64,000 nt of DNA from Vicingaceae bacterium (lineage in GTDB: Bacteria; Bacteroidota; Bacteroidia; Flavobacteriales_E; Vicingaceae). The translations under genes were made by a program, and so were the position numbers. The stretch lies in contig CBDDFS010000003.1 in NCBI GenBank assembly GCA_965227255.1, positions 27,503 to 91,502 on the forward strand. The letters run 5' to 3'. The notes beneath the pieces were generated by a model. That model saw nothing but the letters and a program-made list of their open reading frames with translations, made no database searches and was not told where the DNA came from. Positions 3,037 to 62,639 of this stretch are shown piece by piece; within the stretch, counting starts at the first letter, position 1, and each line of letters opens with the position of its first letter.

Positions 3037-3069
3037 ATTTCGCTTTTAGCCCGAAAGCATTTTTAAAAA

Positions 3070-3235: not shown

Positions 3236-3405
3236 GACAAAAGTATAATTATTATCCGAAAGACTGGAATGATCTAATCTTATTATGAATCTTTTTTCAA
3301 CATCAAGCGTAAAAAAGTCTCTGTTCAAAATTACAAGGCCTAAATTCAAAGTTTTATCTTTGGAGATAGTAAGCCGCAGTTTTGGCATAATAATTTGAAA
3401 CTGAT

Positions 3406-10350: not shown

Positions 10351-13300
10351 ATGAATTCACTTCGAGCACAGACTTTCTTTCCTCTTAAAGTTCCGTTCTC
10401 ATTTATTCTTTTCTCTATTCTTTTTGTCGTCGCCCTTACAACTCCAAAGATCTCGAAAGCCACCCATGCCATGGGTATGGACCTTACCTATGTCCAGGTA
10501 AGTCAGGACACTTTTATTGTTACCGTGGCATTTTACCGCGATTGTTCTGGAGCTGCAGCTCCTGCCAGCCAGACTCTCAGGGTCAGAAGCCAATCCTGTA
10601 ATGAGAATTTCACGGTTACCTTACCTCGAATAGGACAGGCGGTTGAAACAACACCGGTATGTGCTAGTCTCGTTACGGTTTGTAATAATGGAACATTCCC
10701 TGGGTCGGAAGAATATATCTATCAGGCAACGGTAGTTCTGCCGGATCAATGTTCAGATTGGATATTTAGTACTGACAGATGCTGTAGAAATAACGCCATT
10801 ACAACAATTAACAATCCGGGCAACCAGGAAATCTTCGTTGAAGCGAAGATCAACAACTTCAATTCGAACTCTTCTCCTGTATTCTCAAATCCTCCTGTAC
10901 CATTTGTCTGCGGCAACCAGACTTACTGTTTCAATAATGGAGCCATCGATCAGGAAGGAGACTCTCTTGTTTACAGTTTGATCACACCCAGAACCGGAAC
11001 TGGAGCCAATGATACCATCACATTCCAGGCAGGATATGATAGATTTAATCCTCTTACCTCAAATCCTCCAATCTTTCTGGATTCAGCTACCGGTGACCTT
11101 TGTATGTTCCCGACGGATACAACAGAAATCGCCGTTCTGGCACTTTTAGTGGAAGAATACCGAAATGGAGTTTTCATGGGAAGCATCATGAGAGATATCC
11201 AACTGAGGATCATTGGTTGTCCGAATGGAAATTCAAATCCTGTTCTGAGTGGAATTGACTCAACTACTTCTTTTGTAACGAAAGTCTGTGCTAACACAAA
11301 TTTGAGCTTTGATGTTTTTGTAGATGATCCTGATACCGGACAGGTTGTTACAATGACGTGGAATCAGGCTGTGCAGGGTGCAACATTTAATGTGACCACA
11401 GATGATCGTCCTGTAGGGACTTTTTCATGGACACCTACCATCAACGATGTTCGAGATCAGCCTTATTGCTTTACAGTAACTGTATCAGACGACAACTGTC
11501 CATTCAATGCTCAGCAAACGGCGTCCTATTGTGTATATGTGGTTGGTGTCGCTGCGATCGTTGACTCACTCATCGATCCTTCCTGTTTCGGTTATTGTGA
11601 TGGTCGGGCCATGGCACGCGTTGTAAATGGTATACCTCCTTTTATTTATTCATGGAATGACCCCAGTAATCAGACAAATGCAAGGGCCATAAATTTATGT
11701 GCGGGAACATATACGGTAACCGGTACAGACAGCACAGGTTGTACGACCAGTGTGCCCATTTCACTTTTTGATCCAAAAGAAATTGAGCTGGACTTGGACA
11801 GTGTACCTACCTTATGTAATGGAACAAATGATGGAATGGCCATTGTAAGTTCCGTGGGAATGGGATTCCCGCCTTATTCATATCTCTGGGAAGTGGCTGC
11901 AGGTTCTCAAACTACAGATACAGCCTTCAACTTGGCTATTGGCACATACACAGTTACAGTAACAGATTCAAATGGATGTTTCGTCTCCGACTCTATAACC
12001 GTAACAGAACCAAATCCACTCGCACTGACCGGAAATGTAATTTCCAATGTGAGCTGTAATGCATATAATGATGGTCAGGCCTGGGTTCAGGTTAGTGGTG
12101 GAACAGCACCTTATTCTTATCAATGGGATAGCCTTTCCAATTTCCAGACGACGGATACAGCAAGCAATCTTTTAGCCGGAAACCATACCGTAGTTGTCAC
12201 CGATGTAAATGGCTGTATGGACTCGGTTAGTATCACGATTAACGAGCCGAATTCAGTTATCACACTAAGCTTATCGACAGTAGATATCAATTGTACGGGA
12301 GATAGTACAGGTTCCGCAACGGTGGTAGCATCAGGTGGAACACCACCCTACGCTTATCAATGGAGTGCCAATGCGGGTTCACAAACTACGGCAACAGCAA
12401 CGGGTCTTACAGCCGGAACATATAGTATTATAGTTACTGACCTGAACGACTGCTCGGCTATACCTTTCGTCGTGTTGACCGAACCTGCGAATGCGTTTGT
12501 AATTACACCGGTCGATTCATTTGTTGCTTGTAATGGTTTCACCGATGGAGTGGCGGGAGTTGAAGTTGCGGGAGGAAGTCCACCGTATACTTTCCAATGG
12601 GATGCCAATGCAGGAAATCAAACTACTCAATATGCCTCCAACCTGGGAGCAGGAACTTATTCAGTATTTGTAGATGATTCGCTAGGATGCGGTGACACAG
12701 TTAATGTGCAGGTTCTGGAAGCAGACACACCATTGGTTATTACCGTGGGCAAGGTGGATGTGACCTGCAACAATGGATTTGATGGTCAGGCTTTTGTTTC
12801 TGTGACCGGAGGACTTCAACCTTACACTATTCAATGGGATTCTGCCTCTGGATTTCAAACAGGAGATACGGCAAACAACTTAATGGCTGGAAACTATGCT
12901 GTTAGTATTTCTGATGATTTCGGCTGTGTGGTTGATACATCAGTATTAGTGAACGAGCCTCCACCACTATTGACTTTGACGACCAGTTCCACCAATGTAG
13001 CCTGTTTTGGAGACAGCACAGGTACGGCAACCGTTGTCGTGTCCGGAGGAACTCCACCTTATACATATCAATGGAGTGCAAATGCGGGTGGACAAACAAC
13101 TGATACAGCCTTCGGATTGCCGGCAGGCACTTATTTTGTAACTGCCTTTGACAGCAACAATTGTACCACATCACCGGGAATACTTATAGAAGAGCCTAGC
13201 GATCCGGTTAGGTCAAATATTGTTACTATGGACGCCCTTTGCTTTAACGATAGCAGCGGTATGGCCATTGCTCAGGCTTTTGGTGGAAATCCACCTTATA

Positions 13301-15921
13301 CATATCAATGGGATAGTCTAGCCGGAAATCAAACAACGGATACAGCATTTAATCTTTCAGCCGGAAATTACAATGTGACCGTAACCGATTCACTTGGTTG
13401 TACCTTCGATACCTTAGTTATGGTAAGTCAACCAAACGCACCATTGCAATTAACACTTGCGGCGAATGAAGTGAATTGTTTTGGCGGAACGGATGGTAGA
13501 GCCATTGCCACGGCTGGTGGAGGAACGAGTCCATACAGCATTCAATGGGGTGCACTTTCAAACAATCAGACAGGCGATACAGCATTGAATCTTGTGAGTG
13601 GTTATCATCTGGCGACCTTGAGTGATACCAACATGTGTTCAGTTACCGACAGCATATTTGTAGGTGGACCGGCCGAGCCTGTTGTTGGAGTGATGTCGGC
13701 CGTTGATGCAACTTGTAACGAAAGTTCAGATGGTCTGGCCATTGCAGAGGCAAGTGGTGGTACTGCACCTTACCTTTATGTTTGGGACAGCAGCACCGGA
13801 AATCAGGCCAATGATACAGCATTCAATTTATCAGCAGGAACTTACACTGTGCTGATCACAGATTCTAATAATTGCGATACTACTTTTAGTGTTATTGTGG
13901 GTGAACCATCGAGACTTGAAGATTCAGTATTTGTCTCTTCCAATTTTGGAGGATCTGACATCAAATGTTTTGGTGATTCAACAGGTGAAGCCACTGCACT
14001 GGGTATTGGTGGAACAGCACCTTACACGTATCAATGGGATACAGCGGCTGCAAATCAGACCACGTCCATTGCCACAGGACTAGGTGAAGGTACTTACCAG
14101 GTTGTGATCACCGATACTAATGGATGTATGACCAGTGGTTCTGTAAGTCTCGCAAACCCTCCTAAAGTTGGAGCCACCATTGCTCAGATCAAAAATATCT
14201 CTTGTTATGGTGGTAGTGATGGAAGGATCGAAGTAAATGGATCCGGAGGGACATCACCATATACTTACCTCTGGAATACAGCTCACACAGGAAATGTATT
14301 AGATAGTGTGCCAATTGGAACATATACTGTAACAATTACAGATTCCAATAATTGTGATTTCGACACAACATTTACATTAATTCAGGCCGACAGCATTACC
14401 ATTGATTCATTGATTGAAATAGATGCAGCATGTTTCGGCACTCAAACCGGATCAGCCGGTATATTTATAAGTGGCGGTACCACACCTTACTCCTATTTAT
14501 GGGAAGTTTCTCCTGGCATATTCCAGGTCACACAAACGGCTATCAATCTTGATGCAGGAACTTATCCCGTTCAGGTAACAGACTTTAATGGCTGTTCAAT
14601 ACTTGATACCGCTGAGATCCTTGAACCAGGAGAGGTCTTTGTAAGCGTATCAGACAACGACACCATCTGTGCCAGTCAACCAACGGTGCTAACTGCTTTA
14701 GGGTCGGGTGGTGATTCTGCGTCATACAGATACGTCTGGCTCCCTCCTCAACCTGACAGTAATGCAACGCAAACAGTCATGCCAACGACAACGACAAACT
14801 ATGCGGTGAGAGCAATGGATGCGAGTGGCTGCTTTAGCAACCCCGCCCTTGTTACTGTATTTGTCAGAACAATGGAAAATGACACGATCAACGTTGACGT
14901 TGATGGAGATGTGTGTGCAGGCGATACAGCAATCTTGACAGGTTTCCACAATGGACCGTTCGGAAACTACACCTACACCTGGAACAATGGTTTAACCGGC
15001 TTTGGGCCTCATGAAGTGAGGCCTGATTCGGCTACCGTTTACGTCATGACGGCGAGTGATATATGCGGAAATACTATCTCTGACTCGGTATCTGTAAATG
15101 TTTTTCCAAATCCTGACCTTGGTCTTGACAGCATTATTGCAATCGGTTGTGATCCACTGGCAGTTCAATTTGACGATACCGTGAATACAATGACGAATCT
15201 GACGTATTTATGGCAATTTGGTGATGGAAATGCATCTACTCAGAAAAGTCCTACCTATACTTATCTCACAGCTGGAACATATGATGTAACATTGTCTATC
15301 ACATCTGCGAATTCATGTACGACTACCAATAAGACCAGTCCATCATTGGTTATAGTGCACCCTACTCCTAGCTCAGACTTTAAAGCGGATCCGTTGAGAG
15401 CTGATATGAGAAACCCGGTCATTGATTTCACGGATCAAAGCACAGGGGCCATTTCATATACATGGCAGTTTGGAGATGGAGACACTTCGAAGACTAGGAA
15501 TCCTTCTCATACCTATGGAGACACAGGAAGTTATGTGGTGACCTTGACTTCAATTTCCGATCAGGGATGTGAAAGTCAGAGTCAACGAGAGATTATCATT
15601 GATGCTTATTATTTTATGTCGGTGCCCAATGCCTTTACTCCTTCCACCAGCAATGGCAATGGTGACTGGAGAAATGATCCAGCAGGAAATAAGATCTTCT
15701 ACCCTTACACAACAAATCCTGAAGCAGTTGTGGAATACGAAATGTTGATCTTCAACCGATGGGGTGAATTGATCTTTGAGTCGAAGAATATATTCACCGG
15801 CTGGAATGGATTCTATCGCGACAGAGAGAGTCCTCAGGAAGTGTACGTATATAAGATCAAGGTGCGCTGGGAAAATGGACAGACATTCGAAAAAACAGGT
15901 GACGTTACCCTTTTCAGATGA
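10351..15921 (+). CDS. Giant cell-surface adhesin: 13 SprB-type repeats, 2 PKD domains and a gliding-motility-associated (type B T9SS) C-terminal domain
   Basis: 1856 aa. Repeats of the form C.G..DG.A.V..SGG..PY.Y.W........T....NL.AGTY.V.V.D.NGC. PKD signatures W.FGDG. The C-terminal NAFTP...N.WGELIF...GW.G block is typical of CHU_C/type B sorting domains. Confidence 0.9.
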   Translation: MNSLRAQTFFPLKVPFSFILFSILFVVALTTPKISKATHAMGMDLTYVQVSQDTFIVTVAFYRDCSGAAAPASQTLRVRSQSCNENFTVTLPRIGQAVETTPVCASLVTVCNNGTFPGSEEYIYQATVVLPDQCSDWIFSTDRCCRNNAITTINNPGNQEIFVEAKINNFNSNSSPVFSNPPVPFVCGNQTYCFNNGAIDQEGDSLVYSLITPRTGTGANDTITFQAGYDRFNPLTSNPPIFLDSATGDLCMFPTDTTEIAVLALLVEEYRNGVFMGSIMRDIQLRIIGCPNGNSNPVLSGIDSTTSFVTKVCANTNLSFDVFVDDPDTGQVVTMTWNQAVQGATFNVTTDDRPVGTFSWTPTINDVRDQPYCFTVTVSDDNCPFNAQQTASYCVYVVGVAAIVDSLIDPSCFGYCDGRAMARVVNGIPPFIYSWNDPSNQTNARAINLCAGTYTVTGTDSTGCTTSVPISLFDPKEIELDLDSVPTLCNGTNDGMAIVSSVGMGFPPYSYLWEVAAGSQTTDTAFNLAIGTYTVTVTDSNGCFVSDSITVTEPNPLALTGNVISNVSCNAYNDGQAWVQVSGGTAPYSYQWDSLSNFQTTDTASNLLAGNHTVVVTDVNGCMDSVSITINEPNSVITLSLSTVDINCTGDSTGSATVVASGGTPPYAYQWSANAGSQTTATATGLTAGTYSIIVTDLNDCSAIPFVVLTEPANAFVITPVDSFVACNGFTDGVAGVEVAGGSPPYTFQWDANAGNQTTQYASNLGAGTYSVFVDDSLGCGDTVNVQVLEADTPLVITVGKVDVTCNNGFDGQAFVSVTGGLQPYTIQWDSASGFQTGDTANNLMAGNYAVSISDDFGCVVDTSVLVNEPPPLLTLTTSSTNVACFGDSTGTATVVVSGGTPPYTYQWSANAGGQTTDTAFGLPAGTYFVTAFDSNNCTTSPGILIEEPSDPVRSNIVTMDALCFNDSSGMAIAQAFGGNPPYTYQWDSLAGNQTTDTAFNLSAGNYNVTVTDSLGCTFDTLVMVSQPNAPLQLTLAANEVNCFGGTDGRAIATAGGGTSPYSIQWGALSNNQTGDTALNLVSGYHLATLSDTNMCSVTDSIFVGGPAEPVVGVMSAVDATCNESSDGLAIAEASGGTAPYLYVWDSSTGNQANDTAFNLSAGTYTVLITDSNNCDTTFSVIVGEPSRLEDSVFVSSNFGGSDIKCFGDSTGEATALGIGGTAPYTYQWDTAAANQTTSIATGLGEGTYQVVITDTNGCMTSGSVSLANPPKVGATIAQIKNISCYGGSDGRIEVNGSGGTSPYTYLWNTAHTGNVLDSVPIGTYTVTITDSNNCDFDTTFTLIQADSITIDSLIEIDAACFGTQTGSAGIFISGGTTPYSYLWEVSPGIFQVTQTAINLDAGTYPVQVTDFNGCSILDTAEILEPGEVFVSVSDNDTICASQPTVLTALGSGGDSASYRYVWLPPQPDSNATQTVMPTTTTNYAVRAMDASGCFSNPALVTVFVRTMENDTINVDVDGDVCAGDTAILTGFHNGPFGNYTYTWNNGLTGFGPHEVRPDSATVYVMTASDICGNTISDSVSVNVFPNPDLGLDSIIAIGCDPLAVQFDDTVNTMTNLTYLWQFGDGNASTQKSPTYTYLTAGTYDVTLSITSANSCTTTNKTSPSLVIVHPTPSSDFKADPLRADMRNPVIDFTDQSTGAISYTWQFGDGDTSKTRNPSHTYGDTGSYVVTLTSISDQGCESQSQREIIIDAYYFMSVPNAFTPSTSNGNGDWRNDPAGNKIFYPYTTNPEAVVEYEMLIFNRWGELIFESKNIFTGWNGFYRDRESPQEVYVYKIKVRWENGQTFEKTGDVTLFR
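11560..14630 (+). repeat. Coding tandem array of 13 diverged SprB repeats, about 75-80 aa each
   Basis: Thirteen copies of the GG(T/S)(P/A)PY(T/S)YQW...AGTYTVTVTD.NGC signature were counted in the translation. Confidence 0.85.
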
Positions 15922-30779: not shown

Positions 30780-33700
30780 ATGTATCTGATTTTTGACACC
30801 GAAACGACCGGTTTACCTAAGAATTATAATGCGCCGTTAACGGACTTTGATAACTGGCCTCGAATGGTTCAGTTGGCCTGGCAGTTGCATGATGAGAATG
30901 GGGAATTGATCAGTGTTGAGAACTACATTGTAAAACCAGATGGATACGAAATTCCTTTCAATGCTTCCAAGATCCATGGTATCACTACAGAAAGAGCTGA
31001 GAAACAAGGCCTTGATCTTAAGGAGGTGCTCGATAAGTTTTCAGGAGACCTGGAGAAATGTCAATTCGTTGCCGGACATAACATATCCTTCGATCTTGCC
31101 ATTGTTGGATGTGAATATCTGCGTTGCGAACTTGAGAATAAACTCGAAGGCATCAAGGATCTTGACACCAAAGATGCAGGTACGGAATATTGCGCCATCC
31201 CCGGTGGTAAAGGAGGCGGATATAAATGGCCACGATTGGATGAACTGCATAAAAAGCTTTTCGATGAAGGCTTTGATGAAGCCCATAACGCCGCTGCCGA
31301 TGTTGAGGCGACAACACGCTCCTTCCTTGAAATGATCCGTCTGGGCCTGATCGGTCCCAAAGAAACAGGTCTTGACCCCTCCTACTTTGAGGAATTCAAA
31401 GAAAAGAACCCAAAGCCATTTAAGGCTATAGGATTGAATGTTCAGCCTTATGATCCGGGAGAACTGGAAGAAAGTCAGGAGTCCGAAGAAAAAGGTCAAA
31501 GGTCAGAAGAGACATCACCAAATAACCAAATAACCGAATCACCAGACAATACTCAGGAATCTGGAATCAGGAATCAGGAATCTGAAATCTCAGAAGCTTT
31601 GTCTTCTGAGTATGTCTCCCTACACAACCATACCCAATTCTCAATTCTTCAGGCTACTTGTGAGGTAAACAATCTGATCGATAAAGCCAAAGAATTTGGT
31701 ATGAAGGCCCTTGCTATCACCGACAAGGGAAACATGTTCGGTGCATTCAAATTCCAGCAGGCAGCGAGTAAGGCAGAGATCAAACCCATCATTGGTTGCG
31801 AATTTTACGTTTGTGACGACCATACAAATAAGAGCGTTAAAGATGACGGAAACATGCTGGTTCTGCTTGCAAAGAATCAGAATGGATACCGCAACCTCTG
31901 TAAAATGAGCGCCATTTCTTTCCTCGACGGTTTCTACTATGTTCCGAGGATTGATAAAGATGTTTTATTGGAGTACAAAGAGGATCTCATTGCCTTAAGT
32001 GGCGGACTGAGAGGTGAACCTTCAAGGCTTCTATTGAATCACGGTGAAAAAAGAGCTGAAGAGTCAATTTTGTGGTACAAGGAACACTTCGGGCAAGATT
32101 ACTATCTGGAACTTCTTCGCCATGGTGTTGAAGAAGAAGATGTTTCGAATGAATTTTTTATTCGAATGTCACAAAAACATGACGTGAAAGTCATAGCTCA
32201 GAACAACGTATTTTACGTAACTCCTGACGACGCAAAGGCTCATGATATTCTGCTGTGTGTCAAGGATAATGCCAAACAGAGCACGCCCATAGGTAAAGGA
32301 CGGGACAAGAGATATGGCTTTCCAAATAATGAATTCTCTTTTAAGTCACCTGCCGAGATGTCGGAGCTTTTCAAGGATATCCCGGAGAGCATCAGCAACA
32401 TCACAGAGATTGTTGACAAGGTTGAAGAATATCAATTGAAAAGAGATGTTCTGCTTCCTGCCTTTGAAATTCCGGATGAATTTGAAACGGAAGATGATTA
32501 TCTGAAGCATTTGACCTACGAAGGTGCAAAGCAACGATATGAGGAAATCACTCCTGAGATCAAGGAAAGACTTGATTTTGAGCTGGAAACGATCAAGAAT
32601 ACCGGTTATCCCGGTTACTTCCTGATCGTGCAGGATTTCACCTCTGAAGCGCGAAAAATGGGCGTAAGTGTGGGGCCCGGCCGGGGGTCGGCAGCCGGGT
32701 CGGCTGTGGCTTATTGCATTGGAATCACAAATGTTGACCCCATCAAGTATGACCTGCTTTTCGAGCGTTTTCTCAATCCCGACAGGATATCCCTTCCTGA
32801 TATTGATATTGACTTCGATGATGAAGGACGAGGAAAGGTCATTGACTTCGTTGTGGAGAAATACGGCAAGAATCAGGTGGCTCAGATCATCACCTATGGA
32901 TCCATGGCTGCCAAATCAGCGCTTCGGGATACGGCTAGAGTACTTGAGCTTCCGTTAAGCGAAGCCGATCAATTAGCCAAGATGATGCCAGATACCAAAC
33001 TGAAGAAAATGTTTGGTATGGAAGACAAGGCGTTGAAAGAAAAACTGGGTGCTGAGCAGTTCGAAAGAGCTCAGCAAATGAAAGAAATTGCGAAAGGTAA
33101 CGACCTGCAGGCCAATACGATAAATCAAGCTACCGTACTTGAAGGTTCACTTAGAAATACAGGCACGCATGCTTGTGGTGTGATCATCACTCCGACGGAT
33201 ATGACGGAACTGATTCCGGTGGCCTCGGCCAAAGATGCCGACCTGATGGTTACTCAATATGACAACAGTGTCATTGAATCGGCAGGGATGCTGAAAATGG
33301 ACTTCCTGGGACTTAAAACCCTATCCATTATCAATCATGCTATTCGTCTCATTAAAGAAAAACACGGTGTTGAAATTGATGTAGATGAGATTCCTTTGGA
33401 TGACACCAAGACCTACGAGCTATACCAACGGGGTGAAACGAACGGAACCTTCCAGTTTGAGTCGCCTGGTATGCAGAAGCATCTGAAGGCGCTTAAACCT
33501 GATAAATTCGCCGATCTAATTGCCATGAATGCCTTGTACAGGCCAGGACCAATGGAGTATATTCCAAACTTCATTGCAAGAAAACAAGGTCGTGAGGAGA
33601 TCACTTACGATATCGATGATATGGAGGAATACCTGGCAGAAACCTATGGTATTACTGTGTATCAGGAGCAGGTGATGCTATTATCCCAAAAGTTGGCAGG

Positions 33701-35105
33701 TTTTACCAAGGGTGAAGCTGACGTTCTGCGAAAGGCCATGGGTAAGAAGATCTTCGCCCTACTGGATCAACTCAAGCCTAAGTTTCTTGAAGGGTGTGAG
33801 AAGAACGGTCATGACAAAGTGGTTGCCGAGAAGGTCTGGAAAGACTGGGAAGCCTTTGCCGCCTATGCCTTCAATAAATCGCATTCTACTTGCTACAGCG
33901 TCATTGCATTCCATACTGCTTACCTTAAAGCTAACTATCCGGCTGAATACATGGCCTCTGTGTTGACCAACAACATGAATGATATTAGCAAAGTGGCTTT
34001 CTTTATGGAAGAATGTAAGCGACTGAATATTCCCGTATTGAGTCCGGATGTAAATGAAAGTCATATTCACTTTACAGTGAACAATGAGGGAGCAATTCGT
34101 TTCGGGTTAGGGGCTGTAAAAGGAGTTGGTGAAGCGGCTGTTGAAATCATGATTCAGGAAAGAAATCAAGGCGGAGCCTTTACTTCACTCTTTGATCTGG
34201 TGCAGAGAGTAGATCTTCGTTCGGTGAATAAAAGGACGCTGGAAAGTTTGGCCATGGCCGGTGCTTTTGATGGTTTCGATAATGCACACAGGGCACAGTA
34301 CTTTGCGACCGACGAACTGGGCAGAACGGGCATTGAATTGGCAGTCAAGTTTGCAAATGCTGTCAAACAGTCAGAGAATTCCAGCCAAATAAACATGTTT
34401 GGAGAGGAAAGCAGTTACGAAGTGACAGAACCTGAATTGCCCAAAACAGAAGAATGGGGTACCATGGAATTTCTTTCCAAAGAAAAAGAAGTTGTTGGTG
34501 TATATATTTCAGGGCACCCGCTAGATGACTATAGATTGGAGATAGAGAATTTCACCAATGCCAATCTGACCTTCCTGAATCAGGTCGACTATTTCAAAGG
34601 AAGGGAGATGAAGTTTGCAGCCACAGTCACAGGATCCAGGCATGGAATGACAAAAAGAGGAAAACCATTTGGAGTGCTTACACTCGAGGATTACTCAGAG
34701 AGTCAGGAGATTTTCCTATTTGGAGAAGACTATGTTAATTTCAAGAACTACATGGTCGTGGGCTGGCATTTGTATGTTCATGGCAAAGTGATGGAGCATA
34801 AATTCAAGGAAAATGAATGGGAATTCAAGATTGCCAAAATCGAGTTACTCAGTGACCTTAGAGACAAAATGGCACGAAGCATTACCTTAAATGTTCCAGA
34901 AACCACTGTAAATGAAGATTTTGTGCAGAAAATTGGTGAGATCAGTGACAAACATAAAGGCAAGGTTCAGCTTGTGTTGAAGCTCCTCGATAAAAAGGAG
35001 AAACAAGTGGTGGAACTGCGCTCCAGAAGCAAGAAAGTGAATATAACAGATGAATTCCTTGAGGAATTATCAGGACTTAAGGAAGTCAATTATACAATCA
35101 ATTAA
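30780..35105 (+). CDS. dnaE: DNA polymerase III alpha subunit (DnaE, PHP + pol + OB) with a fused N-terminal DnaQ-like DEDDh 3'-5' exonuclease domain
   Basis: 1441 aa. Exo motifs are FDTETTG (ExoI), GHNISFD (ExoII) and HNAAADV (ExoIII) in aa 1-190. A low-complexity linker spans aa about 225-275. The PHP start is VSLHNHTQFS, followed by canonical DnaE blocks (GPGRGSAAGS, PDIDIDF, LKMDFLGL, FNKSHS). Confidence 0.9.
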   Translation: MYLIFDTETTGLPKNYNAPLTDFDNWPRMVQLAWQLHDENGELISVENYIVKPDGYEIPFNASKIHGITTERAEKQGLDLKEVLDKFSGDLEKCQFVAGHNISFDLAIVGCEYLRCELENKLEGIKDLDTKDAGTEYCAIPGGKGGGYKWPRLDELHKKLFDEGFDEAHNAAADVEATTRSFLEMIRLGLIGPKETGLDPSYFEEFKEKNPKPFKAIGLNVQPYDPGELEESQESEEKGQRSEETSPNNQITESPDNTQESGIRNQESEISEALSSEYVSLHNHTQFSILQATCEVNNLIDKAKEFGMKALAITDKGNMFGAFKFQQAASKAEIKPIIGCEFYVCDDHTNKSVKDDGNMLVLLAKNQNGYRNLCKMSAISFLDGFYYVPRIDKDVLLEYKEDLIALSGGLRGEPSRLLLNHGEKRAEESILWYKEHFGQDYYLELLRHGVEEEDVSNEFFIRMSQKHDVKVIAQNNVFYVTPDDAKAHDILLCVKDNAKQSTPIGKGRDKRYGFPNNEFSFKSPAEMSELFKDIPESISNITEIVDKVEEYQLKRDVLLPAFEIPDEFETEDDYLKHLTYEGAKQRYEEITPEIKERLDFELETIKNTGYPGYFLIVQDFTSEARKMGVSVGPGRGSAAGSAVAYCIGITNVDPIKYDLLFERFLNPDRISLPDIDIDFDDEGRGKVIDFVVEKYGKNQVAQIITYGSMAAKSALRDTARVLELPLSEADQLAKMMPDTKLKKMFGMEDKALKEKLGAEQFERAQQMKEIAKGNDLQANTINQATVLEGSLRNTGTHACGVIITPTDMTELIPVASAKDADLMVTQYDNSVIESAGMLKMDFLGLKTLSIINHAIRLIKEKHGVEIDVDEIPLDDTKTYELYQRGETNGTFQFESPGMQKHLKALKPDKFADLIAMNALYRPGPMEYIPNFIARKQGREEITYDIDDMEEYLAETYGITVYQEQVMLLSQKLAGFTKGEADVLRKAMGKKIFALLDQLKPKFLEGCEKNGHDKVVAEKVWKDWEAFAAYAFNKSHSTCYSVIAFHTAYLKANYPAEYMASVLTNNMNDISKVAFFMEECKRLNIPVLSPDVNESHIHFTVNNEGAIRFGLGAVKGVGEAAVEIMIQERNQGGAFTSLFDLVQRVDLRSVNKRTLESLAMAGAFDGFDNAHRAQYFATDELGRTGIELAVKFANAVKQSENSSQINMFGEESSYEVTEPELPKTEEWGTMEFLSKEKEVVGVYISGHPLDDYRLEIENFTNANLTFLNQVDYFKGREMKFAATVTGSRHGMTKRGKPFGVLTLEDYSESQEIFLFGEDYVNFKNYMVVGWHLYVHGKVMEHKFKENEWEFKIAKIELLSDLRDKMARSITLNVPETTVNEDFVQKIGEISDKHKGKVQLVLKLLDKKEKQVVELRSRSKKVNITDEFLEELSGLKEVNYTIN
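31517..31589 (+). repeat. Octamer x4 then heptamer x5 array inside the dnaE exonuclease-PHP linker
   Basis: Octamers are accaaata accaaata accgaatc accagaca (31517-31548). Heptamers are aggaatc tggaatc aggaatc aggaatc tgaaatc (31555-31589). Together they encode NNQITESPDNTQESGIRNQESEIS. Confidence 0.8.
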
Positions 35106-37672: not shown

Positions 37673-37691
37673 TACTTTGTATTTCAAAGTA
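37673..37691. promoter_or_regulatory. Perfect 7-bp dyad (TACTTTG-N5-CAAAGTA) upstream of the XrtN-system operon
   Basis: Seen 24 nt upstream of the ATG at 37715. Possible operator or 5' hairpin. Confidence 0.3.
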
Positions 37692-37714
37692 CTTTTATTT
37701 TTAAATTAAAAGCC

Positions 37715-38194
37715 ATGAAAAAAATCAGAACCGCCCTTATAATTTTCGCCACAGGACTCTTCATATCAGGACTCACCGCTTTTCCTCTGGAAAGAGAACT
37801 TCTTATTTTAAGTCATCAAATTCCGCAGGATTCTTTTTTTGGGGAATGGATATGGAAGGTCAGAGATGCGCTGGTCTTTGTAGAGATGCACTTCCCTTTT
37901 CTCTCCTATGGAACCGACTGGCTTGCATTCGCTCACATATTATTCGCTATTCTCTTCTTCGGCATATTAAAGGATCCAATTAAGAATAAATGGGTCGTGG
38001 AGTTTGGAATTATCGCCTGTGTCCTTATCTTGCCTCTTGCTCTTATTGCCGGCGATATTCGAGGGATTCCGATGTTCTGGAGATTGATCGACTGCAGTTT
38101 TGGTATTCTGGGAGTCATTCCTTTGATATATGCACTTAGACAGATCAATCTGATTCAATCAAGTAAAAACCTCAACCATCTTAAAACAAACTGA
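37715..38194 (+). CDS. Small polytopic membrane protein, first gene of the XrtN-system operon
   Basis: 159 aa from the internal ATG at 37715, with about 4 hydrophobic helices. The stop lies 1 nt before the next start. Confidence 0.65.
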   Translation: MKKIRTALIIFATGLFISGLTAFPLERELLILSHQIPQDSFFGEWIWKVRDALVFVEMHFPFLSYGTDWLAFAHILFAILFFGILKDPIKNKWVVEFGIIACVLILPLALIAGDIRGIPMFWRLIDCSFGILGVIPLIYALRQINLIQSSKNLNHLKTN

Positions 38195-38195
38195 A

Positions 38196-40721
38196 ATGGA
38201 CAATAACAACAAAAACGCAAAAACATTAAACATCATCGGCGTTGCAGCCAGCATATTGAGTTTCGCACTATATCTGATACTTAGAAATAAAACCGAAATA
38301 AGAAGAGGTGACTTTTTTGATGAAGGAGGAGTCTTTCTGATCAATTATATGATCACCATCATATACTCCATCACCGTTATAAGCAACAATACCATCAAGA
38401 ACAGATTCTGGCAATTATCCATGATCGACAGACGACAGATCATGTATATGGTCACGCTTTTCTCAATCTCTGCCTTCACCTTGAATCTTTCTATCCCAAT
38501 TTTCAATCGATTTACAGCATGGCTGGATACTTATCTTCTCATCATGTTCCTTCCTCTGTTCATCCTGGGACATTCAAAAACACCTCAATTCCTGAAATAC
38601 ATTGCATATTTCCTCATGGGACTAGGAACGGTGATGTCACTTTATTTTGCCATTTACCTCCTGCCCATGTTTGTTGTCATGATCATAGGCGCCATATTTT
38701 TCGGTCTCGGTTTGCACTTGATTGCCCCTCACCTACTATTACTGACTTATATCGTGCAATTCAGAAAAGAAAAATCGGGCAGGACGGGTCTGGTTTTATA
38801 CCTCTCCGGTATAATTCTTCCACTTATAGTCTTCTCCTTTTACATGAATAAATGGCATGATGCCAAAATGAATTTGCACAAGGCCAGTGCCAGCATCATT
38901 ACTCAAGCAAATTCCACTCTTCCCACCTGGGTCATTCTCAGTCAGAATTTGAGCTCTGATCCTTTTTCTGAAAAGATCATCATGGGAGAACTTCGATACG
39001 ACACACCACAAAGACATTGGGATTCTTTCGGATTTCCTTCGAATTCATTCAGTGAAATCAAGGAACATGACCCCATGGTCTTTATGTCAATGGCCTTTCT
39101 TGGTGACTTACCTATAGATAGAAACGACAGGATTAAGGTTTTGGAATCAAAATTCGACTCACGTCATCTGTCTTATCGTAAATTCTGGACGGGTCGAGAC
39201 CTGAGCACAACAGAAGTGCTTACCAACCTTGATGTATTTCCTGATTACAGAATGGCCTACCTCGAAAAATACATTACCATTCAGAATCACAATTCCTGGG
39301 CCCAAAATCAACAGGAAGCACTGTATACATTTTATCTTCCGGAAGGATCAGTTGCAACTTCCTTGTCGCTATGGATCAACGGAAGAGAGGAAAAATCAAG
39401 ATTAACGACCAGGCAAAAAGCGGATAGCGCTTATAGTGAAATCGTTGGTAGACAGAGACGTGATCCTGCTTTATTACACTGGCAGGAAGGTAATCGAATC
39501 ACTGTCACTGTGTTTCCATGCACTCCAGCTGAAAACAGAAGATTCAGAGTCGGATTCACCATGCCTCTTGAAAAACGAGGTGATGAATTAATTCTCAAGA
39601 ATGTGAATTTCAAAGGACCCTGGAATAATTCTTCCCTCGAAACCACGGCTATTAGGATTCACAGTCAAAATGGAGCAAAATTCCTTGATCTCCCTTCCGT
39701 TTTTGAACAAACAGGAACCAATGAATATCAGTATACCGGCAGTTACCGGTCGTATTGGGAATTGCGCATATCTGACGAGGGGCTGTCAAAAAATCAGTTC
39801 TCCTTCAATGGCAAGAGTTTTAGTGTAAAAGACCACGAACCTGAAAATGAGATATTCAAAGCTGAGAAGATTTACCTTGATATCAATAAGAGTTGGTCAA
39901 AAGGGGATATAGAAGATGTATTGGAAATTATTGGCGACAGGCCATTTTACGTCGTTGATGTTGAACCCGCTAAGGTTACAGAAGAAAATAGAGAATACTT
40001 AATCGAACAAGGACTCGATAAAGAGTTTAGTCTCTTTCCAATTCATCTTATCGATGATCCGCGAAAAAGCCTGATCATTTCAAAGTCTTCTCACTTAAGT
40101 CCAAACCTCAGAGATCTAAAAGAATCTGTTTTTGGAGATAGTTTGAAATCGTATCTGGAAGGAATGCCTGAATCCATTCCATTTTATAACATAGACAACC
40201 AGGTTTCTCCTTATATAGCCTCTCTGAGAGAATTTGGCATATTTCACTTCTCTTCAGGATCAATAGACGAATTGAGGGATCTGATTTCCAAGAATGAATT
40301 CCCCGAATTCAGTCGAGATACCAATCGAATTGTAATACATGAGTCCGATATGGAGATCATCATGAATAAGGGTGAGGTTAAATCCAAGGCCCCCGATCAT
40401 GTGATGCGGCTCTTTGCCTACAATCAGATCAATCATCTGATGGGTGCTCATTACTTTGAATCGGATGAATACGTTACCGGTGAGTTGATTGATCTGGCGA
40501 ATGAAGCCTTTGTGGTCTCTCCGATCTCAAGTCTGGTCGTACTAGAAACACTTCAGGATTATGAAAGATTTGGAATCGAAGAAAATGAGAACAGCCTTCA
40601 GAATGCAGCCTCTGGCTCTTCCGGAGCTGTCCCTGAACCCCATGAATGGGCGCTGATCATATTGATAGGGCTAACACTCCTATATCTGACCTACAAAAGA
40701 AGAATGAACACATTGAATTGA
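38196..40721 (+). CDS. XrtN-system VIT-domain protein: N-terminal polytopic membrane region, VIT domain and C-terminal PEP-CTERM sorting signal
   Basis: 841 aa. About 7 TM helices in aa 1-230. VIT-like block YTFYLPEGSVATSLSLWINGREEKSRL...RRFRVGF. The C-terminus is VPEP + HEWALIILIGLTLLYLTY + KRR. Confidence 0.8.
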   Translation: MDNNNKNAKTLNIIGVAASILSFALYLILRNKTEIRRGDFFDEGGVFLINYMITIIYSITVISNNTIKNRFWQLSMIDRRQIMYMVTLFSISAFTLNLSIPIFNRFTAWLDTYLLIMFLPLFILGHSKTPQFLKYIAYFLMGLGTVMSLYFAIYLLPMFVVMIIGAIFFGLGLHLIAPHLLLLTYIVQFRKEKSGRTGLVLYLSGIILPLIVFSFYMNKWHDAKMNLHKASASIITQANSTLPTWVILSQNLSSDPFSEKIIMGELRYDTPQRHWDSFGFPSNSFSEIKEHDPMVFMSMAFLGDLPIDRNDRIKVLESKFDSRHLSYRKFWTGRDLSTTEVLTNLDVFPDYRMAYLEKYITIQNHNSWAQNQQEALYTFYLPEGSVATSLSLWINGREEKSRLTTRQKADSAYSEIVGRQRRDPALLHWQEGNRITVTVFPCTPAENRRFRVGFTMPLEKRGDELILKNVNFKGPWNNSSLETTAIRIHSQNGAKFLDLPSVFEQTGTNEYQYTGSYRSYWELRISDEGLSKNQFSFNGKSFSVKDHEPENEIFKAEKIYLDINKSWSKGDIEDVLEIIGDRPFYVVDVEPAKVTEENREYLIEQGLDKEFSLFPIHLIDDPRKSLIISKSSHLSPNLRDLKESVFGDSLKSYLEGMPESIPFYNIDNQVSPYIASLREFGIFHFSSGSIDELRDLISKNEFPEFSRDTNRIVIHESDMEIIMNKGEVKSKAPDHVMRLFAYNQINHLMGAHYFESDEYVTGELIDLANEAFVVSPISSLVVLETLQDYERFGIEENENSLQNAASGSSGAVPEPHEWALIILIGLTLLYLTYKRRMNTLN

Positions 40722-40726
40722 GATCA

Positions 40727-42139
40727 ATGATGAAAATGAACCTTTCAAAAAGGCAATTGATAACGACAGGTTTCCTGCTGCTGGCCACACTGGTTAGCAT
40801 GCAGAACCTGTATTTTTATTTGAAATTCGATTTTCAATTCTTCATTATTGCTCTTTCCTGCCCCTTCGTTCTCTATGTAAAGGAGAGGAACGTATTTTCC
40901 CTCAGGTATGCCTTTCTCTCGCTCCTCTGCCTGGCGGTATATCCCATGATAAAGGTGCAGTCGCTTTTTTTCCTTGGATACATGTTCTTCCTTTTATTCA
41001 TTATTGAGAGCAACCTGGGAAAGGTGAATAATCTTCCTTTTTACCTGATCATTCTCTTATCCCCTTTTTCGGGCTTTGTATTTCAGCAACTGGGATTTCC
41101 CATACGACTTGAATTGACCTCTATTTCGGCTTCCATACTTCAGAGTATGAGCATGGATGCAAGTGCAGTTGGAAATATCCTTTACCTGAATGATCAAGCC
41201 TTCTCGGTAGATCCGGAATGCATGGGACTTAAGATGGTGAGCACATCGTTTATCATTACGCTTCTGTTCCTGGCTCATTTTGAACGCAGATCAAAAACAT
41301 CCTTGTCATTTTCTGTGATCATGTTGGTTTTTGCCTGGACCTCCATCCTCGTAATTCTCAGCAATCTGAGTCGAATCCTCTTGCTTGTTCTCTTCTCATC
41401 AGACCCGGGCTCTTTATCACATGAATTGATCGGAATCATATGTTTGATCTCATACCTAATTCTTCCTAACTACTATATGATTCGGTTGATTTTCAGGAAA
41501 TATGGCAAAACTAAAACTGTTGTGATTCCTTCACCAAAGAGCTTTTCTAAAAAATATGCCTGGCTGATTTTGCCCGGACTAATGGTTCTGCTTTATCTCA
41601 ATCAGAATCGTGTTGAATATAGGAATATCGAAAAGGACCCCATGGCTGAACAGATTGAACTAGATGGTTTTCAAAAAGACACGGTAAAAGGAAATGTTAT
41701 GCAGTTCGTCAATGATACAAGCATGATTTACATAAAACCATCAAGTAAATTCTACGGAGCTGATCACACACCCTTGATATGCTGGAAAGGCAGTGGTTAT
41801 AAATTCGATCACGAAAAAATAGATGTTGTAAATGGCAAGGAAGTCTATATGGCCCATTTAAAGTCGGAGGAAAATGACACACTTTATACCGCATGGTGGT
41901 ACGACAACGGTCCAACGAAAACCATACGTCAACTCGACTGGAGATGGAGAATGATAAAAGGCGAGAATGATTTCCGCCTGGTCAATGTCACCTGCACTAC
42001 TCAGTCGATATTGAATCAGGAGGTGGAGAAACTATTAGAGATGAACCTGTTTGAAGAAATACAAGATGTACAAATTGATATAACGGGCAATATAAGATCT
42101 GAAAAGGGCAATATCATTTCAATTGGTCTTCAGCCTTGA
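40727..42139 (+). CDS. xrtN: Exosortase (XrtN-like) fused to a C-terminal EpsI-like domain
   Basis: ATG at 40727, 5 nt after the upstream stop. Polytopic. The exosortase catalytic-type motifs are DPECMGLKM (Cys), LSNLSRILLL (Arg) and SHELIGI (His). The C-terminal soluble domain carries ADHTPLICWKGSGY (EpsI-like H.P..C..G.G). Confidence 0.75.
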   Translation: MMKMNLSKRQLITTGFLLLATLVSMQNLYFYLKFDFQFFIIALSCPFVLYVKERNVFSLRYAFLSLLCLAVYPMIKVQSLFFLGYMFFLLFIIESNLGKVNNLPFYLIILLSPFSGFVFQQLGFPIRLELTSISASILQSMSMDASAVGNILYLNDQAFSVDPECMGLKMVSTSFIITLLFLAHFERRSKTSLSFSVIMLVFAWTSILVILSNLSRILLLVLFSSDPGSLSHELIGIICLISYLILPNYYMIRLIFRKYGKTKTVVIPSPKSFSKKYAWLILPGLMVLLYLNQNRVEYRNIEKDPMAEQIELDGFQKDTVKGNVMQFVNDTSMIYIKPSSKFYGADHTPLICWKGSGYKFDHEKIDVVNGKEVYMAHLKSEENDTLYTAWWYDNGPTKTIRQLDWRWRMIKGENDFRLVNVTCTTQSILNQEVEKLLEMNLFEEIQDVQIDITGNIRSEKGNIISIGLQP

Positions 42140-59042: not shown

Positions 59043-59652
59043 ATCCAGGCGATTTAGACGCCTTCGCACCGAATACGGCACCAAGCTGGGCTTGCTTGTC
59101 AAAGAATGCAAAGAAGACCTAGCCGGAGCCGATTCAGAGACGGTGAGAAAAAAGATCATCCGTCATTTTGATCACAAATGGCACGGCATTGTCAAAAAAG
59201 TGGCAAACGATCCTTCCCTTCCTCTTGAGTGCTCACCCCATGCCTTTCGAAACAAGATGGATGAGATCCAGGAAGATCAGCGCCGAGCCGCCCTACTGGA
59301 AGGCAACGTCCGGGCCGAATCGCTCCTAGAGATCGGCTTCCAGGAAGTCGAAGGATCTTTCCTGAATCGAAGATCGAAAGACCGTGTTTTTCTGTCCAAT
59401 GAGCTCTGTGTGGTGATCAGTCCCGATGGGTATGTTTCCATTCGACGCGATGTGAATTCACCGGTGATCTGCGGTGCCAGGGAGTACTCCTTGCATGATT
59501 TCAAACATCTACTGCAGGGCCTACATATCCAAGCCATATCACAGCACAAGGACCTGGAAAGCGTGCTTCATGACATTCGCCAAGCCAGCGGTCGCACCTT
59601 CTTTTACATTCAACTCAGTCCACTGAAAATAAAATTTCTTCGAGGTAAATGA
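59020..59652 (+). CDS. Hypothetical island protein
   Basis: 210-aa ORF. Overlaps both neighbours, by 23 nt and by 4 nt. Confidence 0.55.
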   Translation: MNEKKTHESRRFRRLRTEYGTKLGLLVKECKEDLAGADSETVRKKIIRHFDHKWHGIVKKVANDPSLPLECSPHAFRNKMDEIQEDQRRAALLEGNVRAESLLEIGFQEVEGSFLNRRSKDRVFLSNELCVVISPDGYVSIRRDVNSPVICGAREYSLHDFKHLLQGLHIQAISQHKDLESVLHDIRQASGRTFFYIQLSPLKIKFLRGK

Positions 59653-62639
59653 CCAAGATCCCGGAAAATGTGGTTCTTGAGATCAAGTCAAGGGCTCAAA
59701 TTGAAGATGTTGTTCGCCATTTCCAGGACCTTCGAAAGCAAGGGGCCGGCTTTACGAGTGACTGTTCAAAATGCGATGGCAAGAACAAACTAACCATCAC
59801 CCCGTCCAAAAACATCTACAAATGCTTCAAATGCGATTCAAAGGCCGGTGGCCCCATCCAGTATTTAATGGATTACCATGGGATGAGTTATCCCCAGGCA
59901 CTAAAATGGCTGGCCGAGAAGTACAACATTTTAATCGAGGATTCAAGTGGGAAAAAGCCAGCCAGGCCCAAACGAAAAAGAGCCAAGCCGGACCACTCCT
60001 TTCGCGATGAGCAGCTTGAGGCCAGCGGCCTGGATCTCGCCGATCAAATCGCCCGGATCCCATCCAAAGAGGATCCGACCAAAGAAATTGAAATCGATCG
60101 CTACCAGGCAGCCACGATCAATCCCCAGAATTGGCAGATCGAGCCTGGGGATGACATGGTGATGCACTACATCGGCCTGGATGGATCCCCGATGATGTAT
60201 CAGCGAACTTCGAGAAATGGCCAGGTAACGGGTCAGCCCAGGCCATTGATCCGGGTGCGATGGCAAAATCCAGCCCTTCACCTGGACCGCGAGAAACGGG
60301 CCATCAAATATCAGTCGCCACCAGGCAGCGGATCTCAGCTTTGGATCCCGGAGATCATTCGCCGCAAGTATCAAAACGGGGCGGTGATCAAGACCCTCTT
60401 TATCCAGGAGGGCGAAAAGAAAGCAGACAGAGCATGTAAGGAAGGGATCTTCTCGGTGGGCATCATGGGCATTCACAACCTGGCATCGGGCCAGCGCCTT
60501 CCTCATGAATTCGAACTGATCATCAAACGATGTTCGGTGGAAAACGTGGTTTTTTTGCTGGACTCAGATCTCAATGAGCTCTCCCATAATATCAGCGAAG
60601 TGGCCGACAGTCGCCCCCGATCATTCTATGCCGCCGTCAAGAAATTCCAGGCCTATTTCATCGGCTTTCAAAACGTAGGCATTCACCTGGGTATTTATTT
60701 TGGATACGTCAAACCAGGGCAAGAACAAGCCAAAGGCATTGACGACCTGCTGGAAGGTCCACTCAAGAAATCAAAGCAAGGCACCCTTCGAAAAGACGTT
60801 GAAAAAGCCCTGATCGATCCCAACGGCCAGGGAGAATATATTCAGCTTCATGAGATCTCGGATGATTCGACCTACAAGCTCAAAGAATACTTCCATCTTC
60901 ATGACAAGGAGGCCTTTGCCAAATTCCACCAGGATCGCCTCTCTGGCCTCAAGCGCTTCAAGATCTTCAAGCTCTTCTGGAAATTCGATGAAAAGGGAAA
61001 CCTCGAACTGGCTCAGAAGATGATGCCCGATGAGAAGTACTGGAACATGGATTCATATCTCACCACCGGAGGGCGGGAAAAAAAAGAGTTCTCTTTCAAT
61101 TATGTGAATTGCTACAATTTTCTATTCAATCGTGGATTTGGTAGGATGGCCATGGCCAGTGGCAAATACAAATTGATCCAGGAGCATGAAATGCAGGTCA
61201 AGGAAGTCGAGCACGTCGAGATCCGGGACTTCCTGACCAACTTCACCGAGCAGATCGGCGAGAAAGAAGTCCTGAATTTCATCTACCGAGGCGGGACCCG
61301 ATACATGGGACCCGATTCTCTTTCCAATCTTAAATTCAGAGAGATCTCCTGGTCTCAAAACAACAAAGGGGTCCAGTACATCTATTTCAAGAACAAAGCC
61401 TGGAAGATCACCGAAAATGGCATTGAGTCCTCGCTGATCACCGAGCTCGACGGTCACATTTGGAAGAATCAGATCATCGATTTCAACATGATCGACATCA
61501 AAGAAGACTTTATCAAAGTAGAACCCATCACAGAGAAGACCCTGGAAAAAAAGCCCATTCTGAGCAAGGAGATCCTGGGCATGTATTCCATAGAATTTTC
61601 CAAGGAGGCCGATAAATGTGATTTCCTGCAGTTTTTGATTCGAACCGGTGATTTCTATCACGAAGATCGAAAGATGGGCAAAAAACTCACCCAAAAACAG
61701 CAGCTTGAATCCGCCGTGCATCTGCTTTCCAAGATGACGGCCATCGGTTATTTACTACACCGATACCGAGACAGCGCCATGCTCAAGGCCGTGGTGGCGA
61801 TGGATGGTAAATTGTCCGAGGTGGGATCCTCCAATGGCCGCTCCGGAAAATCACTCATGGGCACGGCCCTGGAAAAGATGGTGCCTACGGTTTATGTCGG
61901 CGGGAAAAAGAAGGATCTGACCGAAGATCGATTCATCTGGGAAGAAGTCGATGAGCGGACCCATGTGGTATTCATCGATGATGTCAGGGCCAACATCGAC
62001 TTTGAACGATTCTTTCCGGAGATCACCGGCAAATTTCAAATTGAAGGCAAGGGAATCAAGAAATTCTCGCTTCCGGAACACCAGACTCCAAAGCTATTCT
62101 TCACCACCAATCACGCCATCCGAGGCGAAGGATCCAGCTTCACCGATCGTCAGATCCTCATTGCCTTTTCTGACTACTACAACGACACCCACAAGCCGGA
62201 GCATGACTTCCCTGGAAGATTTTTCGACGATTGGGATCATGCTCAGTGGGTCCTTTTCTATCAGCTTATGGCCAGCTGCCTGCATGTTTATTTCAAGTAT
62301 GGCATTATCCAGGCGCCGACCGAAAGACTCGAACTTCGAAAGCTTCGCCAGGAAATGGGCGAACCATTCTTGGAATGGGCCGACACATACTTCAACCAGG
62401 CATTATTAGGGATCCGTCTACCCAAAATTGCCATGTACAACGCCGTCACCAATGAATATGGAAAATCCTTCCTGGAAACATTTCCCAATCAAAAAAGATA
62501 CGTGGACATCCGAAAATTCAAGGCTAAAATCAAGGCCTATGCCAAATACATGGGCATGGAATACAATCCCAAACAAGGCGGAAAAGACGACAAAGCGGGT
62601 GGCGTGGAATACATCACCCTGCAAAAGACAAACCAATAA
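59649..62639 (+). CDS. Primase-helicase: CHC2 zinc finger + Toprim + P4/D5-type SF3 helicase P-loop
   Basis: 996 aa. The zinc finger is CSKCDG...YKCFKCDSKAGGPIQYLM. The Toprim motifs are IQEGEKKAD...LLDSD. The Walker A motif is GSSNGRSGKS. Confidence 0.85.
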   Translation: MTKIPENVVLEIKSRAQIEDVVRHFQDLRKQGAGFTSDCSKCDGKNKLTITPSKNIYKCFKCDSKAGGPIQYLMDYHGMSYPQALKWLAEKYNILIEDSSGKKPARPKRKRAKPDHSFRDEQLEASGLDLADQIARIPSKEDPTKEIEIDRYQAATINPQNWQIEPGDDMVMHYIGLDGSPMMYQRTSRNGQVTGQPRPLIRVRWQNPALHLDREKRAIKYQSPPGSGSQLWIPEIIRRKYQNGAVIKTLFIQEGEKKADRACKEGIFSVGIMGIHNLASGQRLPHEFELIIKRCSVENVVFLLDSDLNELSHNISEVADSRPRSFYAAVKKFQAYFIGFQNVGIHLGIYFGYVKPGQEQAKGIDDLLEGPLKKSKQGTLRKDVEKALIDPNGQGEYIQLHEISDDSTYKLKEYFHLHDKEAFAKFHQDRLSGLKRFKIFKLFWKFDEKGNLELAQKMMPDEKYWNMDSYLTTGGREKKEFSFNYVNCYNFLFNRGFGRMAMASGKYKLIQEHEMQVKEVEHVEIRDFLTNFTEQIGEKEVLNFIYRGGTRYMGPDSLSNLKFREISWSQNNKGVQYIYFKNKAWKITENGIESSLITELDGHIWKNQIIDFNMIDIKEDFIKVEPITEKTLEKKPILSKEILGMYSIEFSKEADKCDFLQFLIRTGDFYHEDRKMGKKLTQKQQLESAVHLLSKMTAIGYLLHRYRDSAMLKAVVAMDGKLSEVGSSNGRSGKSLMGTALEKMVPTVYVGGKKKDLTEDRFIWEEVDERTHVVFIDDVRANIDFERFFPEITGKFQIEGKGIKKFSLPEHQTPKLFFTTNHAIRGEGSSFTDRQILIAFSDYYNDTHKPEHDFPGRFFDDWDHAQWVLFYQLMASCLHVYFKYGIIQAPTERLELRKLRQEMGEPFLEWADTYFNQALLGIRLPKIAMYNAVTNEYGKSFLETFPNQKRYVDIRKFKAKIKAYAKYMGMEYNPKQGGKDDKAGGVEYITLQKTNQ

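Follow-up and report, generated by a model that had tools for sequence, protein, structure and literature searches.

We analyzed a three-gene locus in a 64,000-nucleotide (nt) stretch of the genome of a Vicingaceae bacterium (contig CBDDFS010000003.1), hereafter called the window. The locus occupies positions 37715-42139 on the plus strand, where position 1 is the first letter of the window, and its genes are labeled g1, g2, and g3 in the order of transcription. It is a divergent member of the exosortase N (XrtN) system, which is curated, computationally defined and uncharacterized, and not a new kind of system; identity to the nearest relatives does not exceed 49%. Gene g3 encodes the exosortase, and g2 encodes its family-specific partner, a membrane protein with a VIT domain and a PEP-CTERM-type tail. 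Judging from family knowledge, topology and comparisons with related loci, we consider it probable that the exosortase cleaves this partner and that the pair is controlled by a regulator of the HTH_34 family acting on a conserved palindromic box in front of g1. We regard this box as the most informative detail of the locus, since through it the operon is connected with a conserved regulon.

The intergenic gaps, read directly from the sequence, measured 1 nt (g1/g2) and 5 nt (g2/g3), in line with the tight packing described in an earlier, sequence-only reading of this DNA. The flanking genes lie on the opposite strand and comprise an S1/P1-nuclease-like open reading frame (ORF) upstream and, downstream, a 207-amino-acid (aa) ORF and a protein with a TonB C-terminal domain. 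Given these opposite-strand flanks and the short gaps, g1-g2-g3 is a compact unit. The first gene (37715-38194) encodes a membrane protein of 159 aa that has four hydrophobic segments, the second (38196-40721) the 841-aa predicted sole substrate, and the third (40727-42139) the 470-aa exosortase. The longest g3 ORF begins at 40646, and the ATG at 40727 agrees with the N-termini of homologues.

The identity of the enzyme was established by profile comparison. The g3 protein matched TIGR04476 (exosortase N) over residues 16-418 with 350.1 bits (cutoff 200, E 1.8e-104), the exosortase/archaeosortase signature TIGR04178 over residues 159-255 with 26.2 bits (cutoff 23), and Pfam PF09721 (Exosortase_EpsH) with an E-value of 1.5e-13. 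It contains the motifs ECMGLKM (Cys165, 41219-41221), NLSRIL (Arg216, 41372-41374), and SHELIG (His232, 41420-41422), as well as ADHTPLICWKGSGY. Cys165, Asn213, Arg216, and His232 were invariant in XrtN alignments of 22 and of 52 sequences, so that the catalytic Cys/Arg/His motifs picked out earlier proved to be shared by the family. The AlphaFold model, with a predicted local distance difference test score (pLDDT) of 90, consists of an eight-helix transmembrane (TM) core (40727-41506), followed by a ninth TM helix (residues 275-293) and a predicted periplasmic C-terminal domain (residues 300-440), which together span 41549-42046. Foldseek searches with the whole XrtN model gave no match below an E-value of 1e-3, and neither the XrtN profile nor the substrate profile matched any PDB sequence.

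The partner protein was identified in the same way. Residues 13-835 of g2 aligned to positions 2-820 of the 822-position model TIGR04477 (XrtN system VIT domain protein) with 879 bits (cutoff 250, E 3.2e-264). Together with the 350 bits for TIGR04476, this bears out the proposal of the sequence-only reading that the locus pairs an exosortase N with a VIT-domain PEP-CTERM protein. The VIT domain was recognized by Pfam PF08487 at residues 361-452 (41.3 bits, cutoff 26.5, E 1.9e-10). From the AlphaFold model (pLDDT 87) and hydropathy, the protein is predicted to consist of seven N-terminal helices (residues 1-236, 38196-38903), a helical linker, a VIT beta-sandwich (residues 336-475, 39201-39620), a beta domain, an alpha/beta domain (residues 558-790, 39867-40565), and a C-terminal helix (residues 815-840). 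Hydropathy with the positive-inside rule and AlphaFold agreed on the seven N-terminal TM helices, with the N-terminus of the anchor inside and its C-terminus outside. The architecture suggested earlier, with about seven TM helices ahead of a VIT domain, was thus confirmed by hydropathy, AlphaFold and Pfam, and the seven-helix N-terminus and the C-terminal helix support the notion of a substrate anchored at both ends.

The sorting signal (40623-40718) reads G-A-V-P-E-P-H-E-W, followed by a hydrophobic helix and K-R-R. The tail was present as originally quoted (VPEP-HEWALIILIGLTLLYLTY-KRR) and was the sole PEP-CTERM-type tail in the window. G810, P813, E814, P815, E817, and W818 were invariant in 51 sequences of the g2 family, and in 73 of 73 substrate orthologues the C-terminus was made up of G-[AS]-V-P-E-P-H-E-W-x-L-I, then a hydrophobic helix and, last, a cluster of basic residues. 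The sequence-only reading had named two outcomes that would speak against it: g3 failing the exosortase hidden Markov models or lacking the catalytic residues, and a tail that is not conserved. Neither was observed, as the models were passed, the Cys/Arg/His residues aligned, and the tail was conserved in orthologues.

In the alpha/beta domain, 51 of 51 sequences shared D562 and N564, and 42 of 51 had S566, at the place where vWA domains (von Willebrand factor type A) carry the metal-ion-dependent adhesion site (MIDAS). Pfam detected no vWA match in this domain, which was called vWA-like from the alternation of strands and helices in the model and from its structural match to human ITIH1. ITIH1 (PDB 6FPY) was the top Foldseek match of g2 (E 2.9e-15, approximately 590 aligned columns) and covered nearly the whole chain. 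A VIT domain followed by a vWA fold is therefore supported at the level of the predicted fold only.

We assessed the pairing of enzyme and partner in 80 species genomes retrieved with the XrtN profile. In 72 of the 73 loci that were not truncated by the end of a contig, xrtN and the substrate gene were adjacent, and the 73rd had a variant partner. With this one exception, the substrate gene lay directly upstream of xrtN wherever the contig allowed. The suggested one-enzyme, one-substrate relationship is supported by these loci. The XrtN family comprised 364 clusters and the substrate family 641. The locus studied here shares with other XrtN systems (TIGR04476, TIGR04477) the scores far above cutoffs, the gene order, the tail motif, the catalytic residues, and a Bacteroidota host. 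It differs in nothing essential: this copy adds g1 and lacks the pair of genes for fam3 (a membrane protein of approximately 215 aa without a Pfam match) and HTH_34 that was found beside approximately 40% of the loci.

A Kapabacteria locus (L029:7730-11206) is instructive with regard to the tail. The partner of its XrtN (295 bits) is a secreted VIT-vWA protein of 685 aa with a signal peptide, a canonical DVSGSMS MIDAS, and a GAVPEPEEW tail, and with no seven-helix anchor. As this partner has no TM anchor yet carries the same tail, it is the tail, not the anchor, that goes with the enzyme. The Kapabacteria partner was closest to the marine proteobacterial sortase target family TIGR03788 (408 bits). 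Members of TIGR03788, MSEP-CTERM (TIGR04286), and PEP_integral (TIGR02921) are likewise VIT proteins, each the sole cargo of a dedicated sorting enzyme; they differ from the XrtN partners in their sorting signals (LPXTG, MSEP) and enzymes, and for g2 these models gave weak matches only, below the family cutoffs. The conserved box was not present at the Kapabacteria locus, where an ECF (extracytoplasmic function) sigma factor gene and a 403-aa ORF follow the XrtN pair. A second anchor-less VIT-type protein, encoded by a 641-aa ORF directly downstream of a box, was seen on a metagenome contig (L200).

The perfect 7-bp dyad reported earlier in front of the operon, TACTTTG-N5-CAAAGTA, is indeed present at 37673-37691, 24 nt before the ATG of g1. 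With the following CTTTT it forms a box (37673-37696, plus strand) that we regard, from the comparison of related loci, as a probable operator overlapping the promoter. Its inner part, ACTTTG-N5-CAAAGT (37674-37690), is the sole exact site in the window. Taken alone, the dyad might have been a chance feature, as 12% of shuffles of the intergenic region (a spacer with 30% GC) yielded such a dyad; this explanation was overturned by conservation at related loci. At other loci, the regions preceding g1, the substrate gene and fam3 contained the same sequence. There were 90 exact sites in 1.43 Mb of related loci versus approximately 0.09 expected, distributed over 63 of 87 loci, and all of them were located at the 5' end of a transcription unit. 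When one mismatch was allowed, 111 of 115 sites were followed within 130 nt by an ORF on the same strand. These box-headed ORFs encoded the substrate (48), fam3 (34), the g1 family (14), and other membrane proteins, including DUF4153 and CreD-like proteins. A box was found within 1 kb upstream of 54 of 71 substrate genes, and most of the others were situated deeper in box-headed operons. The dyad is a conserved operator-like box and was underrated in the sequence-only reading.

As an independent check, metagenome contigs were scanned for the extended box alone, which retrieved at least 120 contigs. HTH_34 was encoded on 68 of 120 contigs chosen in this way, and its gene followed a box-headed fam3 gene in 55 of the 56 cases in which the contig left room. 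The simplest reading of this association is an autoregulated fam3-HTH_34 operon whose regulator would also control the XrtN operon. We propose that a single promoter, which ACTTTG-N5-CAAAGT overlaps, drives transcription of g1, g2, and g3 together and that the box serves as the operator of a small HTH_34 winged-helix regulator. Homologues of HTH_34, fam3, DgkA, DUF4153, and DUF1361 were not found in the 64-kb window, so that the regulator, if the HTH_34 reading holds, must be encoded elsewhere. The same box would head a series of Bacteroidota inner-membrane operons, namely those of fam3, the g1 family, DUF4153 and CreD-like proteins, and operons including DgkA and DUF1361. Searches of the literature on HTH_34/PF13601 and on DUF4153/DUF1361/MSEP-CTERM found nothing relevant, and the box thus seems to connect the XrtN operon to a regulon not described in the literature searched.

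We also considered that the palindrome is not an HTH_34 operator but a special promoter or an RNA hairpin in the 5' untranslated region that controls translation. The box is asymmetric outside its arms (T-rich upstream, a conserved ACTTTT downstream), is always oriented toward the gene, and ends just 7-26 nt before start codons, and its RNA fold is better than that of shuffles; all of this would suit such an element. What makes it unlikely in our view is that the arms are invariant in sequence around a variable spacer and that mismatches are left uncompensated (A stands opposite C at positions 0/16 in 12 sites). No Rfam family matched at the box, and the co-occurrence with HTH_34 on contigs picked by the motif, together with the position of the box before the regulator's own operon, also speaks against such an element. 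Scans with sigma-70 promoter and terminator models, which do not fit Bacteroidota promoters, gave nothing above background.

Returning to the proposal of an exosortase that cleaves its partner, the following course of events appears probable from topology and family knowledge. The partner would be inserted into the inner membrane via its seven N-terminal helices, with the ITIH-like part of approximately 575 residues (VIT, beta domain, vWA-like domain) facing the periplasm. The C-terminal helix would re-enter the membrane and leave the KRR in the cytoplasm, which would place VPEPHEW at the periplasmic face of the membrane. There, the Cys165/Arg216/His232 site of XrtN would cleave the tail via a thioacyl intermediate, as mutagenesis has demonstrated for the related archaeosortase A (ArtA), and the intermediate would be resolved by water or, more probably, by a lipid or glycan nucleophile of the envelope. 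Because the N-terminal anchor stays in place, processing would mature or re-tether g2 rather than release it.

ArtA of Haloferax volcanii, a near counterpart, is a polytopic enzyme that belongs to the XrtN superfamily and likewise has a signature Cys and Arg, and it recognizes a three-part signal of motif, helix and basic tail, as in g2. Its activity requires Cys173, Arg214, and Arg253. Once cleavage has occurred, a lipid is attached (PMC9263693), covalently in the case of PGF-CTERM proteins (PMC9263693, PMC7157517). ArtA differs from XrtN in serving many substrates with another motif in an archaeal membrane, and its substrates are anchored by the new lipid only, whereas the XrtN partner keeps its seven-helix anchor.

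A competing explanation is that the tail is an uncleaved docking element and that the enzyme and the VIT protein stay together in a stable complex of the inner membrane, the PEP-CTERM helix remaining bound in the groove of XrtN. The strict one-to-one pairing of the two genes agrees with this, as does the seven-helix anchor of the partner, which makes sorting seem unnecessary, and the conserved periplasmic domain of XrtN could hold the partner. We nevertheless find docking quite improbable, since the invariance of Cys/Arg/His in 52 sequences suggests that catalysis is kept and since the Kapabacteria partner, with no other anchor, behaves like ordinary cargo.

Several points weigh against the combined proposal of cleavage and HTH_34 control. 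We infer cleavage, the cleavage site and the acceptor from family knowledge and topology, and experiments on any XrtN system were not found in the literature searched, nor did queries for XrtN, exosortase N or an exosortase with a VIT domain return a relevant paper. The vWA-like domain, which has no Pfam match, shows DxNxS in place of the canonical DxSxS MIDAS. On the regulatory side, the HTH_34 gene missing from the 64-kb window has to be assumed elsewhere on the genome, approximately seven loci had no box within reach, and another factor could recognize the box. In a transcript, the box could also form a hairpin in the RNA (-7.6 kcal/mol, z -3.35). The proposal as a whole retains our preference with these points taken into account.

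The match to ITIH1 invites a comparison with a known maturation pathway. Heavy chains of the inter-alpha-inhibitor (ITIH) lose a C-terminal prodomain and become ester-linked through their C-terminus to chondroitin sulfate (PMC7170535). ITIH1 resembles g2 in its succession of VIT, vWA-like domain and C-terminal part, and is its best structural match at almost full length. It differs in that the two share approximately 11% identity, that ITIH1 has a canonical DxSxS MIDAS and no membrane anchors, that it is eukaryotic, and that its ester link is made without an exosortase. ITIH precursors may be cut at a DPHFII motif, which resembles EPHEW; a literature search on this motif found nothing relevant, and the comparison made here does not rely on it. 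The parallel is suggestive, not proof. A bolder version, which we put forward as speculation with little expectation that it holds in full, is that the XrtN pair is a bacterial counterpart of heavy-chain maturation. XrtN would cut the VPEPHEW tail and join the ITIH-like ectodomain, through its new C-terminus, to a glycan or lipid of the envelope, covalently tethering the inner membrane to another envelope layer, and both genes would be activated as one arm of an undescribed, phylum-wide membrane regulon under HTH_34 and its membrane partner fam3.

The C-terminal domain of g3 did not support the exosortase-EpsI fusion proposed in the sequence-only reading. Neither Pfam PF11984 nor any NCBIfam EpsI model matched residues 301-470 even at E <= 10. 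Among Pfam and NCBIfam models, the XrtN model was the only match, apart from a weak match to XrtO. When 1.84 billion representatives were searched with a profile of the domain, no more than 648 proteins came up; the top 150 were all XrtN-like, being of XrtN length or shorter partial sequences. Foldseek searches of the domain against the PDB gave weak matches to DcrB/PsbP/DUF1795-like folds (E approximately 0.02-1), and tblastn searches against plasmids revealed no link between the domain and EpsI. EpsI family proteins carry a His-x-Pro-x-x-Cys-type motif, and EpsI proteins and exosortase-EpsI fusions are like XrtN in that a periplasmic domain is joined via an extra TM helix to an exosortase, or encoded beside it. 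They differ in that no EpsI model matches the XrtN domain, which is confined to XrtN with weak kinship to XrtO. The domain may thus be called EpsI-like in position and topology, with homology unproven. His347, Pro349, Cys352, Trp353, Trp390, Trp391, Trp405, and Arg406 of this domain were invariant in the alignments. Cys352 is a second invariant cysteine, five residues after His347 (residues 347-353, 41765-41785), and has no conserved partner cysteine; His347 and Cys352 could form a second reactive or metal-binding site.

The small membrane protein g1 matched no Pfam or NCBIfam model, and its family is marked by the conserved motifs YGTDWLAFAH and WRLIDCSFG. The view of the locus as a self-contained three-gene system did not stand. 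Members of the g1 family were located near XrtN in just 17-18 of 80 loci. In 13 of these a clear homologue immediately preceded the substrate gene, in four it lay at another position within the locus, and one more locus encoded a distant homologue. At least 7,932 clusters belong to this family, while XrtN has 364. Outside XrtN loci, its members adjoin fam3 and HTH_34 genes, or genes for DgkA-like kinases, DUF1361, DUF2809, MpaB-like, and CreD proteins, and the same neighbors surround many XrtN pairs. Since g1 is absent from most XrtN loci and is found in islands without XrtN, it is an accessory gene of a larger membrane-protein island, and it would be a member of the box regulon rather than an XrtN-specific subunit. 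That g1 is instead a dedicated third subunit, like the exosortase F associated protein or EpsI, is very doubtful: the 1-nt gap to g2 suggests translational coupling, and g1 immediately precedes the substrate gene at 13 other loci and lies close by at four to five more, which is well above chance, but approximately 78% of XrtN loci lack g1, its family exceeds XrtN in size more than 20-fold, its members sit in XrtN-free islands beside HTH_34, DgkA, DUF1361, DUF2809, and MpaB-like genes, and no exosortase-associated family model matches it.

The island itself was observed repeatedly in Bacteroidota as a same-strand group of inner-membrane protein genes (loci L076, L077, L017, L085, and many others). 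Its members are fam3, the HTH_34 regulator, the g1 family, DUF4153, a DgkA-like kinase and DUF1361; CreD, DUF2809, and MpaB-like genes join them in some cases. The XrtN pair may be present or absent, and genomes differ in the order of these genes. In L076 (L076:5654-14709), the order is fam3, HTH_34, g1, substrate, XrtN, DUF4153, DgkA, and DUF1361.

Exosortases are widespread and their chemistry is little known. What such an enzyme attaches its substrate to is most simply studied where one enzyme serves one substrate. The locus offers three experimental handles: the conserved operator with its candidate regulator, which could show when the XrtN system is switched on; the structural parallel with ITIH1; and the anchor-less Kapabacteria variant. 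Furthermore, the box defines a set of uncharacterized Bacteroidota inner-membrane protein families that seem to be co-controlled.

The remainder of the window agreed with the type IX secretion system background assumed in the sequence-only reading, as it holds cargo of this system. A 589-aa LapA-like aminopeptidase (8461-10230, minus strand) carries a type A domain (28.5 bits, cutoff 23), and a protein of 1856 aa (10351-15921, plus strand) scored 31.6 bits for a type B domain, just under the cutoff of 35. A cobalamin riboswitch (RF00174, 98 bits) was detected at 3058-3248 on the minus strand, just upstream of a 649-aa ORF (1087-3036, minus strand). A DNA polymerase III alpha-like protein of 1441 aa is encoded at 30780-35105 (plus strand), and its N-terminus (MYLIFDTETTGLP...) looks like a fused DnaQ-type exonuclease. 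At 59649-62639 (plus strand), there is a 996-aa protein whose only family match was to the DnaG zinc-finger region (residues 4-111).

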